From contig JBBQXJ010000011.1 in NCBI GenBank assembly GCA_038209745.1, positions 8,390 to 72,389 of the forward strand: a stretch of 64,000 bases of DNA. The letters run 5' to 3'. This stretch comes from Verrucomicrobiota bacterium. Lineage in GTDB: Bacteria; Verrucomicrobiota; Verrucomicrobiia; Limisphaerales; CANJSG01. Below are positions 38,124 to 42,384 of the stretch, piece by piece. The number at the start of each line of letters is the position of its first letter. Position 1 is the stretch's first letter. The translations under genes were made by a program, and so were the position numbers. The notes below the pieces were generated by a model. That model was not told the DNA's origin. It made no database searches and saw only the letters and a program-made list of their open reading frames with translations.

Positions 38124-38642
38124 ATGCAAATCACACGCGCAGGCGAATACGGAATGCTGGGCCTCATGGCTCTGGCCCGCCGTCCTTTGGGTGATATCGT
38201 GATGCTGGATATCATCGCCAGCGAAGAGGAGATTCCCGTGAGCTTTCTCGGGAAGATCTTCCAGAATCTGACCAAGGCGGGATTCGTCCGCTCGGCCCGT
38301 GGATCCAAAGGCGGCTTCAGTCTGCTTCGATCCCCGGAGGAAATCACCGTGCTGGAGGTCATCGAATCCATCGAAGGCAAGATCGCGTTCCAGCGATGCC
38401 AAGAAGACAAGCCTGACTGCACCCACATGGGCGGCTGCGCCCTGTGCGGGCTTTTCAGCGAAGCTCAGGACAAGGTGAAGGAAGTCTTCGCCCGCACCAC
38501 CGTGGCCTCGTTGACCCGGCAGCACACTCCCTTTTCGGACCATCAGGAGCAACACGGTCTGACCGGCCCCAAACACCAACCCGGCAAACCGGTTCCCGAG
38601 CATCTGATCCAGCTTTCCAAATCACCCCAAACCGTTAACTGA
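38124..38642 (+). CDS. Rrf2-family Fe-S regulator (IscR-like)
   Basis: SARGSKGGF.L, C-X6-C-X5-C-X2-C. Confidence 0.9.
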   Translation: MQITRAGEYGMLGLMALARRPLGDIVMLDIIASEEEIPVSFLGKIFQNLTKAGFVRSARGSKGGFSLLRSPEEITVLEVIESIEGKIAFQRCQEDKPDCTHMGGCALCGLFSEAQDKVKEVFARTTVASLTRQHTPFSDHQEQHGLTGPKHQPGKPVPEHLIQLSKSPQTVN

Positions 38643-38650
38643 ACAATTTT

Positions 38651-39079
38651 ATGAGCGACACCTATACCCTCTACAACGACACGGTCATGGAGCATTTCAT
38701 GAACCCCCGGAACATGGGCGACATCAAGGATGCCGACGGCGTCGGCGAAGTCGGCGCGGCGGCCTGTGGCGACATCATGAAGATCTCCCTCAGGATCAAG
38801 GACGGGAAGATCGAGGACGCCCGCTTCAAGACCTTCGGCTGCGGCTCGGCCATCGCCAGCTCCAGCATGGCCACCGAACTCATCAAGGGCCGGACCATTG
38901 ACGAGGCCATGAACTTCTCCAACCAAGAAGTCGTGGACGCCCTCGGCGGTCTGCCCCCGGTGAAGATCCATTGCTCGGTGCTGGCCGAGGAAGCCCTCAA
39001 GGCCGCGCTGGAAGACTACGTGAAGAAGCACCCTGAACTGGCGGCGAAGGCTCAGAAGACCGAAGCTGCAGTCGCTTAA
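38651..39079 (+). CDS. iscU: Fe-S scaffold IscU/NifU-N
   Basis: ACGD, FGCGSAIASSS, LPPVKIHCS. Confidence 0.95.
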   Translation: MSDTYTLYNDTVMEHFMNPRNMGDIKDADGVGEVGAAACGDIMKISLRIKDGKIEDARFKTFGCGSAIASSSMATELIKGRTIDEAMNFSNQEVVDALGGLPPVKIHCSVLAEEALKAALEDYVKKHPELAAKAQKTEAAVA

Positions 39080-39163: not shown

Positions 39164-40429
39164 ATGCGCCAAGTATTTCTAGACCATCAGTCCGCCACCC
39201 CGGTTCTGCCGGAGGTGTTCGACGCGATGAAGCCCTATTTCACCGAGTACTTCGGAAACCCTTCGTCGCTCCATCAACATGGGCTCCGCGTCCGCGACGC
39301 GCTCAAGAAGGCCCGCCAGCAAATGGCCGCGTTGATCAATGCCGACAGCGAAGAGGAGATCTTCTTCACCTCGGACGGCACCGAGTCCGCCAACCTTGCG
39401 ATCAAAGGCGTGGCCTATGCCAATGAGCGCAAGGGCAAGCACCTCGTCGTCTGCGCCACCGAGCATCCGAGCATCATGTTGTCGGTCGAGTTCCTGGAGA
39501 AGCAGGGCTGGACCTGCACCCAGGTGCCCGTTGATGCGGAAGGCGTCATCAATCTCGAAGCGCTGAAGGCCGCCATCACGAAGGAGACGACGCTCGTCGC
39601 CGTCCACTATGTGAACCACGATATCGGCACCATCCAGCCCATCGTCGAGGTGGGCCAGATCTGCGCCGAAAAGAGCGTCCCGCTCTACGTCGATTGCGAA
39701 GCCAGCGCCGGATGGATGCCGATCGATGTGAAACAGTTCGGCGCCGCGTTGGTCAGCTTTTCGCCACATCGTTTCTACGGACCCAAAGGCGTGGGTGTCC
39801 TCTATCGCAACAAGAAGGCCCGGATCGTCTCCATCATCCACGGTGGCGTGCAGGAAGGCGGCCGGCGTGCCGGCACTGAAAACATTCCGGCCATCGTCGG
39901 TGGCGGCGTGGCGGCGGAGATCGCCCTGCGCGAGATGCCCCAAAGAATCTCCCACGTCGCCAAGCTCCAGACGCGCCTTTGGGAAGGGCTGAAGTCCAAG
40001 GACAAGTTCATCAAGTTGAACGGTCCCGAACCCGGCCCAAAACGGATCGCGACAAACCTGAACATCTCGACCGAGTTCATCGAGGGCGAAGGCCAGCTCC
40101 TGCTCTGCGACATGAACGGCATCGCCGTCGCCAGCGGATCGAGCTGCGTCAGCAAGAGCCTGAAGATCTCCCATGTGCTCGCCGCGATCGGTCTCGACCA
40201 CGCGTTGGCCCAGGGGAACATCATCATGACCCTCGGCAAGGACAACACCGAGGAGGAGATCGACTATGTGGTGGAGACGTTCGGCAAGATCATCACCCGG
40301 CTCCGCGGCATGTCCCCGATGTGGGATGAGTTCGAGCGCGGCGTGATCGATTCCGTCATCGCGCCGACCGGGCGGGGCAAGTCCTTCAGCCAGCACGCCG
40401 CCGAGATTTCGGGCAAGGCGGCCCATTGA
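39164..40429 (+). CDS. iscS: IscS/NifS-like protein with the PLP Schiff-base Lys replaced by Arg
   Basis: FGNPSS, GPKGVG, QEGGRRAGTEN, SGSSC; SxHK reads SPHR. Confidence 0.9.
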   Translation: MRQVFLDHQSATPVLPEVFDAMKPYFTEYFGNPSSLHQHGLRVRDALKKARQQMAALINADSEEEIFFTSDGTESANLAIKGVAYANERKGKHLVVCATEHPSIMLSVEFLEKQGWTCTQVPVDAEGVINLEALKAAITKETTLVAVHYVNHDIGTIQPIVEVGQICAEKSVPLYVDCEASAGWMPIDVKQFGAALVSFSPHRFYGPKGVGVLYRNKKARIVSIIHGGVQEGGRRAGTENIPAIVGGGVAAEIALREMPQRISHVAKLQTRLWEGLKSKDKFIKLNGPEPGPKRIATNLNISTEFIEGEGQLLLCDMNGIAVASGSSCVSKSLKISHVLAAIGLDHALAQGNIIMTLGKDNTEEEIDYVVETFGKIITRLRGMSPMWDEFERGVIDSVIAPTGRGKSFSQHAAEISGKAAH

Positions 40430-40503: not shown

Positions 40504-41535
40504 ATGCTCTCCCAAGATTCCATCCTGAACGCCCTGAAGACGGTCAAATACCCCGGCTTTTCACGCGACATCGTTTCCTTCGGCATCGTGAAACAGGCGC
40601 AGGTCGATGCCGGCGCCGTGACGATCCTCATCCAGTTGACCAGCGGCAGCCCGCAGGTCGCGCAGCAGCTCAAGGCCGATTGCACGAAAGCTCTCACCGC
40701 TGTGACCGGCGTGGAGAAGATCGCCGTCGAAGTGCTGATGCCGACGGCCGGCGCTCCGGCGCCGACGGCGACGAACAAGATGGCGGGCATTGGCCGGGTG
40801 GTCGCGGTGGCTTCCGGCAAAGGCGGCGTCGGCAAATCCACCGTTTCGGTCAATCTCGCCTGCGCGTTGGCCCATTTGGGACTGCGCGTCGGCCTGCTCG
40901 ACTGCGACATCTACGGCCCCAGCATTCCCCTGATGATGGGCGTCAATGCGAAGCCCAACGTCAACGAGGAGGAGAAGCTCGTGCCGCTGGAGAGCCACGG
41001 AGTCCGCCTCATGAGCATGGGCTTCCTGGTGGATCCCGATCAGGCGGTGATCTGGCGCGGACCGATGATCCAAAAGACGATCCAACAGTTCATCACCCAG
41101 GTGGCCTGGGGTGAACTGGACATCTTGCTGGTTGACCTGCCGCCCGGCACGGGCGATGCGCAATTGTCGCTCTGCCAGACTGTTCCGCTCGATGGCGGCG
41201 TGGTCGTGACCACCCCCCAGGAGGCTTCGCTGGGTGTCGTGCGCAAGGGCATCCAGATGTTCAACAAGGTGAACGTGCCGCTGTTAGGAATCGTGGAAAA
41301 CATGAGCTACTTCACCGCGCCCGATGGAACGCGGGTCGAGATCTTCGGCCATGGCGGAGGCAAGGCGGAGGCGGAGCGACAGAAGACTTTGTTCTTGGGA
41401 GAAGTTCCCATTTTCACGGCAATCCGGGAAGGCGGCGACAACGGGCTTCCCGTCGTGGTCGTGGGTCCGGAAACGCCGGCGGCGCGACCGTTTTTCGGCG
41501 TGGCGGAGGCACTGCGCGCGCGACTGTCCATTTGA
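40504..41535 (+). CDS. mrp: Mrp/ApbC P-loop Fe-S carrier ATPase with N-terminal DUF59
   Basis: SGKGGVGKST, DIYGPS, WRGPM, DLPPGTGD, VTTPQ, ENMS. Confidence 0.93.
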   Translation: MLSQDSILNALKTVKYPGFSRDIVSFGIVKQAQVDAGAVTILIQLTSGSPQVAQQLKADCTKALTAVTGVEKIAVEVLMPTAGAPAPTATNKMAGIGRVVAVASGKGGVGKSTVSVNLACALAHLGLRVGLLDCDIYGPSIPLMMGVNAKPNVNEEEKLVPLESHGVRLMSMGFLVDPDQAVIWRGPMIQKTIQQFITQVAWGELDILLVDLPPGTGDAQLSLCQTVPLDGGVVVTTPQEASLGVVRKGIQMFNKVNVPLLGIVENMSYFTAPDGTRVEIFGHGGGKAEAERQKTLFLGEVPIFTAIREGGDNGLPVVVVGPETPAARPFFGVAEALRARLSI

Positions 41536-41669: not shown

Positions 41670-41906
41670 ATGTCGAATACCAATCAAGACAGGGTATCAG
41701 GGAATGATTTGGTCAAACGCTCCTCGCTCTACCGTGAATATCAGGCCGAGCGGGAGGAGATCCTGAAACACAAATGGATCGAGTCCGAAAAAACCGGCCA
41801 AGACATTGGCTTTGAGCGGGCGCTGACCGACTGGATCATCCATCACCGCGCCCAATGGCGCCGCACCCGCCTGCAGCAGCTGCAACAGGAGGGAGGCCGG
41901 GCTTGA
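41670..41906 (+). CDS. small DUF4032-like protein
   Basis: EILKHKWIESEK.G.DIGFERAL.DW. Confidence 0.75.
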   Translation: MSNTNQDRVSGNDLVKRSSLYREYQAEREEILKHKWIESEKTGQDIGFERALTDWIIHHRAQWRRTRLQQLQQEGGRA

Positions 41907-41964: not shown

Positions 41965-42384
41965 GTGAAGCTGTCCGTCAAAAGCGACTACGCTTGCCGT
42001 GCCGTCCTGTGGCTTTCCCGCCATTACAGCGGCGGCGGTGCCCGACGGGTTGAGGAAATGGCGACCGAGCACGGCATCTCCCCGAACTATTTGGTCCAGA
42101 TCCTCATCGAGATGAAGTCCGGGCAGATCGTGAAGAGCGTCCGCGGCAAGGATGGGGGCTACCTTCTGGCCCGCCCACCCGCCAAGATTTCCATGGGCGA
42201 CGTCCTCCGCTGCATGCACGGGGAGATCTTCGAGTCCCCCGCCATCAAAGACGCCCAGTGCCCGTCCGAACTCCGGGAAGCCTGGAAGAAGCTCCAAGCG
42301 GCAGTGACCGACGCCGCCAACGGAATCACCTTCCAGCAGTTGCTGGAGGACGGCGCGGAAAAGAACCGGATGTTCTACATCTGA
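41965..42384 (+). CDS. second Rrf2-family regulator (CymR-like)
   Basis: YLVQIL, SVRGKDGGYLLARPP, C-terminal MFYI. Confidence 0.9.
   Translation: MKLSVKSDYACRAVLWLSRHYSGGGARRVEEMATEHGISPNYLVQILIEMKSGQIVKSVRGKDGGYLLARPPAKISMGDVLRCMHGEIFESPAIKDAQCPSELREAWKKLQAAVTDAANGITFQQLLEDGAEKNRMFYI

Follow-up and report, generated by a model that had tools for sequence, protein, structure and literature searches.

How can a protein with the fold of a cysteine desulfurase, encoded beside the iron-sulfur (Fe-S) scaffold IscU, serve cluster assembly once the residues that process cysteine have been replaced? The question is raised by one gene in a stretch of 64,000 nucleotides from a Verrucomicrobiota bacterium (contig JBBQXJ010000011.1 of assembly GCA_038209745.1, positions 8,390 to 72,389; we call this whole stretch the window). 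The gene encodes a remodelled IscS/NifS-type protein, here called R-type IscS, in which the Schiff-base lysine, the substrate-binding arginine and two further cysteine-processing residues are gone and the mobile-loop cysteine is kept. Proteins of this type form a clade with strong support, found for the most part in a single verrucomicrobial order. On balance, the sequence evidence leads us to favour a role as a non-desulfurase partner of IscU, in which the protein would act as a cysteine ligand or persulfide acceptor and sulfur would be supplied in trans.

Active-site changes in an intact and conserved frame

The protein matches the class-V aminotransferase family PF00266 over its full length (E 1e-64, residues 4-369 on profile positions 1-371), and its closest solved structures are cysteine desulfurases: 9WEP_A (E 5e-108), Archaeoglobus fulgidus 4EB5_A (1e-96) and E. 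coli 1P3W_B (5e-90). These matches place it in the fold of the group-I (IscS/NifS-type) desulfurase superfamily. It falls below all the NCBIfam equivalog cut-offs, scoring 421 against 530.75 bits for TIGR03402 (NifS), 375.7 against 643.2 for TIGR02006 (IscS) and 372.7 against 548 for NF010611. An AlphaFold2 model built from a 73-row alignment has a mean predicted local distance difference test score (pLDDT) of 93.0 and a predicted template modelling score of 0.91; pLDDT drops below 50 only in the Cys loop (residues 327-332), as expected of a mobile loop.

To describe the active site we rely on three sets of sequences. Substitutions are read from a HMMER alignment to solved desulfurases and from a MAFFT alignment with E. 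coli IscS (K-12 record). A representative alignment of 155 rows combines the query, three paralogues from the same genome and E. coli IscS with the best 150 representatives of clusters at 50% identity; 101 canonical rows serve as the reference. The orthologue set (n = 59) comes from the 60 loci fetched out of 68 in the window's order, the seven weakest matches not having been fetched. In both of the alignments used for reading substitutions, the motif changes described by the sequence-only reading are confirmed: SPHRFYGPKG replaces S-A/G-H-K-x-YGPKG, which puts R203 at E. coli K206; VDCEAS replaces D-A-x-Q, which puts A180 at Q183; VNHDIG replaces NNE, which puts H152 and D153 at N155 and E156; and GNIIMT replaces xxR-F/L-S, which puts I354 at R354. 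The SGSSC motif is present, with C328 aligned to E. coli C328 on a long type-I mobile loop. The gene and the codons concerned are as follows.

39164..40429, + strand: remodelled IscS/NifS-type protein (R-type IscS), 421 residues, seen as an open frame and in alignments, orthologues and the model
39617..39622, + strand: codons of H152 and D153, at the canonical Asn-Glu position (orthologues His 53/59 and Asp 55/59; canonical rows Asn 99/101 and Glu 99/101)
39701..39703, + strand: codon of A180, at the Gln position (E. coli Q183; Ala 45 and Phe 7 of 59 orthologues; canonical Gln 100/101)
39770..39772, + strand: CGT codon of R203, at the Schiff-base Lys position for pyridoxal 5'-phosphate (PLP) (E. 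coli K206; among 60 codons CGN 52, AGG 1, AAR 6 and ACG 1; canonical Lys 101/101)
40145..40147, + strand: codon of C328, the retained mobile-loop Cys (Cys in 59/59 orthologues and in 154/155 rows of the representative alignment)
40223..40225, + strand: codon of I354, at the substrate-carboxylate Arg position (E. coli R354; Ile 42, Leu 15, Val 1, Met 1 and Arg 0 of 59 orthologues; canonical Arg 101/101)

Canonical IscS, NifS and MisS proteins (E. coli IscS 1P3W; the 9WEP series) share with R-type IscS the fold, the length, 40-50% identity, the long type-I loop and an IscU-type partner, but they keep Lys206, Gln183, Asn155 and Arg354, the residues that mark a functional desulfurase, and R-type IscS has none of the four. 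The 9WEP entry itself is a 406-residue 'cysteine desulfurase' of which seven slightly different sequences have been deposited (9WEP, 9WER, 9WEW, 9WFE, 9WFY, 9WFB and 9WF8); the variants fall near active-site motifs, and our literature search found no paper naming 9WEP.

The remodelling extends beyond these residues. Comparing 35 + 59 R-type rows with the 101 canonical rows, we find eleven positions that are at least 75% conserved in the canonical rows and replaced in the R-type. In E. coli numbering they include M151H, N155H, H178F/Y, Q183A, K206R, R274Q, S323A, P335I/V and R354I/L, and K187W and G204P are further changes specific to the clade. New conserved residues appear as well (W184, P201, R261, W273 and the E156D exchange), together with a P-G-P insertion at residues 290-292. 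We also considered whether K208, the lysine of the 'GPK' motif, could be a relocated Schiff-base residue. It is Lys in 127 of the 155 rows, including most canonical ones, and is therefore not a compensating novelty; we rejected this candidate.

The residues that hold the cofactor have a different fate. The stacking His101, Asp177, Thr73, Ser200, His202 and Thr238 are all retained in the window protein, and across the 59 orthologues the counts are 59 for H101, 58 for D177, 57 for T73, 54 for H202 and 47 for S200, with the stacking His, the Asp facing N1 and the phosphate set at 54-59. This conservation makes it likely that R-type IscS binds a cofactor of the PLP or pyridoxamine 5'-phosphate (PMP) type.

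Is the arginine at 203 an accident of this one assembly? The frame is open over 421 codons, as the sequence-only reading had it. The 120 best homologues in a large protein collection are 80-92% identical to the window protein and mostly 421 residues long, the named ones coming from Verrucomicrobiota, Pedosphaera and the like. All 120 carry Arg at 203 (119 as SPHRFYGPKG, one as SPHRLYGPKG) and all 120 carry SGSSC. The ratio of nonsynonymous to synonymous substitution rates (dN/dS; Nei-Gojobori) is 0.08-0.18 between the window gene and ten orthologues and 0.05 between two close orthologues, which is purifying selection. Because the 120 homologues come from independent assemblies and dN/dS is low, the change reflects neither sequencing error nor decay. 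The survey of homologues and the selection test that the sequence-only reading had called for thus both come out in favour of a genuine substitution, and close relatives that all keep Lys are ruled out.

That reading had named the loss of the lysine first, and here the wider orthologue set changes the emphasis. Arg stands at 203 in 52 of the 59 orthologues, but six have Lys and one has Thr. The six Lys203 orthologues (L109, L111, L114, L116, L135 and L153) use AAA or AAG codons, belong to at least four families, and retain I/L354, A180 and H152, that is, all the other changes. Since Lys occurs in 6 of 59 orthologues, its loss does not define the clade. The invariant loss is that of Arg354, seen in every orthologue (0/59 with Arg), together with those of Q183 and N155. 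Judging from these sequences, what is required at 203 is evidently a basic residue and not a Schiff base.

A verrucomicrobial clade among lysine-less IscS homologues

At position 203 the 155-row representative alignment holds Lys in 102 rows, Arg in 32 and other residues in 21. A FastTree tree of 151 rows places the query in a 35-row clade with support 100, none of whose rows has Lys. In a quick IQ-TREE tree of 70 rows the R-type clade comprises 19 rows (100 in the Shimodaira-Hasegawa-like approximate likelihood ratio test, SH-aLRT), and its stem is long, at 0.54 changes per site. The same tree nests it in a 44-row set (support 90), the remainder of which consists of other Lys-less proteins that we call Q-type.

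Within the window's order we find R-type IscS in 68 of 121 sampled genomes, with a single match each at E 1e-100 or better. Outside the order, the best match among 150 genomes of the same phylum is 44% identical, and the twelve best out-of-order matches comprise nine with the canonical His-Lys motif, one Gln form and two left unresolved by the motif pattern. The named relatives of one cluster representative (P0132) are nearly all Verrucomicrobiota. A motif scan with one genome per species, based on a 10-row alignment, yielded 80 loci; by residue signature, 56 of them are Lys-less and the other 24 canonical. Its Lys-less forms are distributed as follows.

Arg at 203 and His-Asp at 152-153: 11 loci that carry a Verrucomicrobiota label and one metagenome-assembled genome (MAG) labelled Betaproteobacteria
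Arg at 203 and another pattern: two MAGs without classification, of which one falls among the Q-type rows of the tree
Gln and other forms: Nitrospirota (including Nitrospira and Thermodesulfovibrio), Chloroflexota, Actinomycetota, Acidobacteriota and others

The contig labelled Betaproteobacteria (L015) carries an R-type gene 69% identical to that of the window, in the same order of IscU, R-type IscS and Mrp; it is probably either a mis-binned contig or a case of transfer.

How does this clade relate to the Lys-less proteins already in print? We find two, both archaeal: A. fulgidus IscS, which is characterised, and Methanosarcina acetivorans IscS1, which the available parts of the sources note as also lacking the Lys and leave uncharacterised (PMC8918507, PMC7585200). 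The parallel with Archaeoglobus had been drawn by the sequence-only reading, and much of it holds. A. fulgidus IscS (IscS2, AF0564; PDB 4EB5, 4EB7, 4HVK and 4R5F) is likewise a group-I homologue without the Schiff-base Lys; it has Ala at Gln183 and Leu at the substrate Arg, keeps the loop Cys, and is encoded with IscU. Common descent, however, does not hold. The row nearest to A. fulgidus IscS (P0139, matching 4EB5 at 2e-128) lies in a separate small clade among Lys-bearing rows (SH-aLRT 99 and 98), and since both FastTree and IQ-TREE separate the A. fulgidus-like rows, the likeness to R-type IscS is convergent. The details differ as well: A. fulgidus IscS has Asn-Asp where R-type IscS has His-Arg, and keeps Asn-Asn-Glu where R-type IscS has Asn-His-Asp. 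Unlike its archaeal counterpart, R-type IscS is bacterial, is linked to an Mrp-type ATPase without a CxxC motif, and occurs in a genome with three canonical desulfurases.

The Q-type proteins (Nitrospirota, Chloroflexota, Actinomycetota and others) have also lost Gln183 and Arg354 and kept the Cys, and their operons also hold an Rrf2 regulator and IscU. They differ in having Gln or another residue, not Arg, at 203, in mostly keeping Asn155 and Glu156, and in gene order, with the IscS homologue ahead of IscU where in the R-type IscU comes first. A further difference concerns sulfur carriers. In a Pfam scan of the neighbours of the 56 Lys-less loci (the first 150 of 204 open reading frames), 16 of 28 Q-type loci have TusA or DsrE_2 as one of the nearest neighbours, against none of the 12 R-type loci. 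As a separate observation, some Gln-type loci (Chloroflexota, Acidobacteriota and Actinomycetota) encode a double zinc-ribbon protein after IscU or fused to the IscU C-terminus; examples are L029:7181-7765 and L057:7166-7735, and neighbours of this kind occur in L027, L031, L032, L036, L050, L052 and L053.

The set that distinguishes the R-type clade is thus Arg or Lys at 203, the His-Asp pair, the long stem, IscU upstream, the CxxC-less Mrp, TusA and DsrE not found, and, in one sub-lineage, its apparent standing as the sole system. A bacterial Lys-to-Arg IscS clade has no description that we could find in the literature, which is weak evidence of novelty as most subscription journals lay outside the search.

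The operon and its place in the genome

In the window, R-type IscS lies in a run of genes in the order Rrf2 regulator, IscU, R-type IscS, Mrp/ApbC-type ATPase, 78-residue protein and second Rrf2 regulator. Its neighbours are listed here.

38124..38642, + strand: IscR-like regulator of the Rrf2 family that opens the module and carries a C-x6-C-x5-C-x2-C cysteine cluster (PF02082 E 3e-33; TIGR02010 IscR 73.7 bits, cut-off 207.55)
38651..39079, + strand: IscU-type scaffold with all canonical motifs, AACGD, GCGSAIAS and LPPVKIHC (PF01592 E 4e-49; TIGR03419 197.7 bits, cut-off 187.9)
40504..41535, + strand: Mrp/ApbC P-loop ATPase with an N-terminal FeS_assembly_P (DUF59) domain and without CxxC (PF10609 E 1e-95, PF01883; NF008669 ApbC 298.3 bits, cut-off 348)
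41670..41906, + strand: small protein of 78 residues (phmmer matches after Mrp in 14/60 order loci; weak sub-cut-off DUF4032 match only)
41965..42384, + strand: second Rrf2-family regulator, most like CymR, of uncertain membership in the module (PF02082 E 6e-28; NF047409 CymR 80.8 bits, cut-off 195)

In 15 of the 60 loci fetched from the order, IscU is preceded by an Rrf2 gene, and the CymR-like second regulator may, by its family resemblance, link the module to cysteine supply. The Mrp-type ATPase is the sole full Mrp-type gene of the genome. After ENMS it reads ENMSYFTAPDGTR, where solved homologues show C-x-x-C, so that both cysteines are gone. The CxxC is missing in all 28 Mrp copies that adjoin R-type IscS (the window copy and 27 others). 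Elsewhere in the protein, the three cysteines C120, C134 and C224 do not vary among 26 copies. In this architecture it resembles the HCF101-type (class I) Mrp/NBP35 NTPases, which likewise combine an N-terminal DUF59 with a P-loop and lack the C-terminal cluster motif of ApbC, Nbp35 and Ind1; in the part of the source available, plastid HCF101 binds a [4Fe-4S] cluster through other cysteines (PMC2805927). A predicted complex between R-type IscS and the CxxC-less Mrp gave no answer (score 0.00, mark 0.32) and counts neither way.

Across the 59 orthologues, both IscU and Mrp lie beside the gene on the same strand in 12 loci; IscU alone does so in 9 and Mrp alone in 15, and 23 loci have neither. 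Mrp is therefore the commoner neighbour (27 loci against 21 for IscU). No recurrent neighbour was found in the 23 loci without adjacent IscU or Mrp.

What else does the genome offer for Fe-S assembly? The source assembly (G000) has 4.58 Mb in 140 contigs and is 92% complete. In this draft, the IscU adjoining R-type IscS is the one NifU_N gene, two A-type carriers are encoded elsewhere, and the SufBD core, TusA, DsrE_2 and HscB were not found. The module is thus apparently alone in this genome as a scaffold-based system of Fe-S assembly. It can be compared with the MIS (minimal iron-sulfur) system named by Garcia et al., which the available part of a review describes as an IscS-like and IscU-like pair without the ISC chaperones and accessory genes (PMC13066941): the pair is present here and HscB is among the genes not found, but an Mrp-type ATPase belongs to the operon and A-type carriers exist elsewhere.

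The sequence-only reading had suggested looking for a second, canonical desulfurase, and the genome contains three group-I paralogues in which Lys, Gln, Asn and Arg are all intact. They lie in unrelated neighbourhoods outside any Fe-S context, which give no clue to their roles. The paralogue of 444 residues, the one that we profiled, has orthologues in 92 of the 121 order genomes, including 19 of the 20 that lack SUF; because it is widespread also where R-type IscS is absent, it does not identify a sulfur donor. The genome further holds a single frame that joins a SufE domain (residues 19-135) to a TatD-like hydrolase domain (residues 183-460; G000:C65, L175:393-1772, - strand). From its domains it may be a persulfide shuttle, or it may be two genes read as one frame.

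We then ask whether R-type IscS and IscU travel together across the 121 genomes of the order, counting a NifU_N match of at least 140 bits as a true IscU. Other NifU_N matches are weaker, SufU-like and mostly located in suf operons. SufBD is present in 101 genomes. Of the 20 without it, 19 have both R-type IscS and a true IscU, and the twentieth has none of the three. True IscU occurs in 28 genomes, R-type IscS is present in every one of them, and true IscU is found in 0 of the 53 genomes that lack R-type IscS. The twentieth genome (G241, from the window's order; 2.6 Mb, 91% complete) shows no SufBD, NifU_N or R-type IscS match, and its congener G158 has SUF; G241 represents either an assembly gap or a genome without a known scaffold system.

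A proposed partnership with IscU and its alternatives

The mechanism that we favour would work as follows. R-type IscS would keep the dimer-type fold, with the cofactor probably held as a structural element, and would no longer process free L-cysteine, the set of Lys206, Gln183, Asn155 and Arg354 (E. coli numbering) being gone. Its role would be that of an obligate partner to IscU, in a module under Rrf2 control that has the CxxC-less Mrp as its third member. At the IscU assembly site, Cys328 would either accept a persulfide or provide the fourth ligand of the cluster, and the CxxC-less Mrp downstream would serve as a carrier or release factor. Sulfur would arrive in trans, most likely from an orphan canonical desulfurase whose persulfide is passed to Cys328 or to IscU; free sulfide would be the alternative source. 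The proposal draws on the active-site losses, on purifying selection with an unvarying Cys328, on the adjacency to and co-occurrence with IscU, on the 19 of 20 SUF-less genomes that have both proteins, on the three canonical paralogues as possible sulfur sources, and on the archaeal precedents.

The biochemical precedents come from two proteins. In the accessible part of the E. coli IscS study, desulfurase activity is absent from the variants H104Q, D180G, Q183E, K206A and C328S and present in R354K; K206A binds some PLP and forms cysteine adducts (PMC9978102). The sequence-only reading had taken both the Lys and the Arg to be needed for desulfuration. In the available sections of the review that covers A. 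fulgidus IscS, the protein has Asp for Lys, is bound to PMP, is inactive, and is proposed to supply the [2Fe-2S] cluster of IscU with one of its Cys ligands; how clusters are assembled on IscS-IscU without desulfurase activity is named there as an open question (PMC8918507).

Several observations weigh against the partnership with IscU. R354K is fully active and K206A binds some PLP, so that not each change is lethal alone, and the well-kept cofactor residues together with Lys203 in 6 of 59 orthologues fit a working PLP enzyme with a different substrate. A true IscU is missing from 40 of the 68 genomes that bear R-type IscS, and neither IscU nor Mrp stands beside the gene in 23 of 59 loci. The 444-residue paralogue shows no specific co-occurrence with R-type IscS, and the claim of a sole system leans on draft genomes. 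The co-scaffold role that the sequence-only reading proposed survives in part: R-type IscS adjoins the sole IscU of its genome and accompanies IscU in 28 of 28 genomes, but since 40 of 68 genomes have it without IscU, that role cannot be the only one and the protein must also work where IscU is absent.

The alternative that survives best, though we think it improbable, is that R-type IscS is a PLP enzyme with a new chemistry or substrate, the cofactor being held non-covalently (Arg203) or covalently (the Lys203 variants). Without the carboxylate-binding Arg, its substrate would be a thiol lacking a free alpha-carboxylate; examples would be cysteamine, a cysteine within a peptide or protein, and a carrier bearing a persulfide or thiocarboxylate. 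Sulfur would still pass to Cys328. Such an enzyme would explain why H101, D177, T73, S200 and H202 are retained, why 203 is nearly always basic (Arg 52 and Lys 6 of 59, with Lys recurring in several families) and why new conserved residues (H148, H152, W184 and P201) surround the pocket. The long stem of 0.54 changes per site likewise suggests a change of function over plain loss, and E. coli K206A, as far as the accessible part of its source goes, binds PLP and forms cysteine adducts (PMC9978102). However, in that same source either Q183E or K206A is enough to abolish activity, and R-type IscS differs at both positions; moreover, no gene for a candidate substrate or carrier recurs beside it. 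A. fulgidus IscS holds PMP and is nevertheless inactive in the available part of its source (PMC8918507), so a retained pocket does not imply catalysis.

Less likely again is that the main partner is the CxxC-less Mrp/HCF101-like ATPase, or SUF components, and that IscU is a later addition in one sub-lineage; R-type IscS and this Mrp would then make up a separate module for the delivery or repair of Fe-S clusters. The neighbourhood counts (Mrp in 27 of 59 loci, IscU in 21), the 40 of 68 genomes in which the only NifU_N matches are SufU-like, the absence of CxxC from 28 of 28 adjoining Mrp copies with their three common invariant Cys, and the binding of [4Fe-4S] by HCF101 without a C-terminal cluster site (in the part of PMC2805927 available) all point this way. 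Set against them are the 23 loci with neither neighbour and the constant presence of IscU in the window and in the 19 SUF-less genomes that bear R-type IscS.

We regard it as very unlikely that the cofactor pocket has been turned into a site for a metal (iron) or a cluster intermediate, so that the protein would donate iron or provide a second site of assembly. The lining would consist of His101, His148, His152, His202, Asp153 and Asp177 with the mobile Cys328, and there are indeed new histidines at canonical Met and Asn positions (among 59 orthologues, 148 is His in 48 and Gln in 11, and 152 is His in 53) in addition to the Glu-to-Asp exchange. The phosphate-binding residues T73, S200, H202 and T238 are kept, however, which fits a phosphate-bearing cofactor better, and we found no precedent in the literature. 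Finally, a sequencing error or a decaying pseudogene of a normal IscS is refuted by the open frame, by Arg203 in 120 of 120 homologues, by a pattern common to 59 orthologues and by dN/dS of 0.08-0.18.

Returning to the partnership with IscU, a broader proposal can be put forward tentatively, as one that we hold possible and not probable: a lineage of Verrucomicrobiota would carry out all of its housekeeping Fe-S assembly on this three-part module, with an IscS that lacks the cysteine-processing residues and an Mrp that lacks CxxC. Sulfur would be mobilised physically apart from the scaffold complex and delivered in trans to Cys328, by an orphan desulfurase or from sulfide. The module is apparently the sole scaffold system in about one in six of the sampled genomes of the order.

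Whatever its chemistry, R-type IscS is a common protein of one bacterial order, is strongly selected there, and in the sampled genomes is always present alongside IscU. It is important to note that annotations as 'cysteine desulfurase' in these genomes go further than the sequence warrants. With canonical desulfurases present and TusA and DsrE not found, the setting is well suited to separating the supply of sulfur by a desulfurase acting in trans from supply as sulfide. If the broader proposal is true, these bacteria would offer a tractable system in which to learn how clusters are made with the help of a 'dead' IscS, the question left by the Archaeoglobus work.

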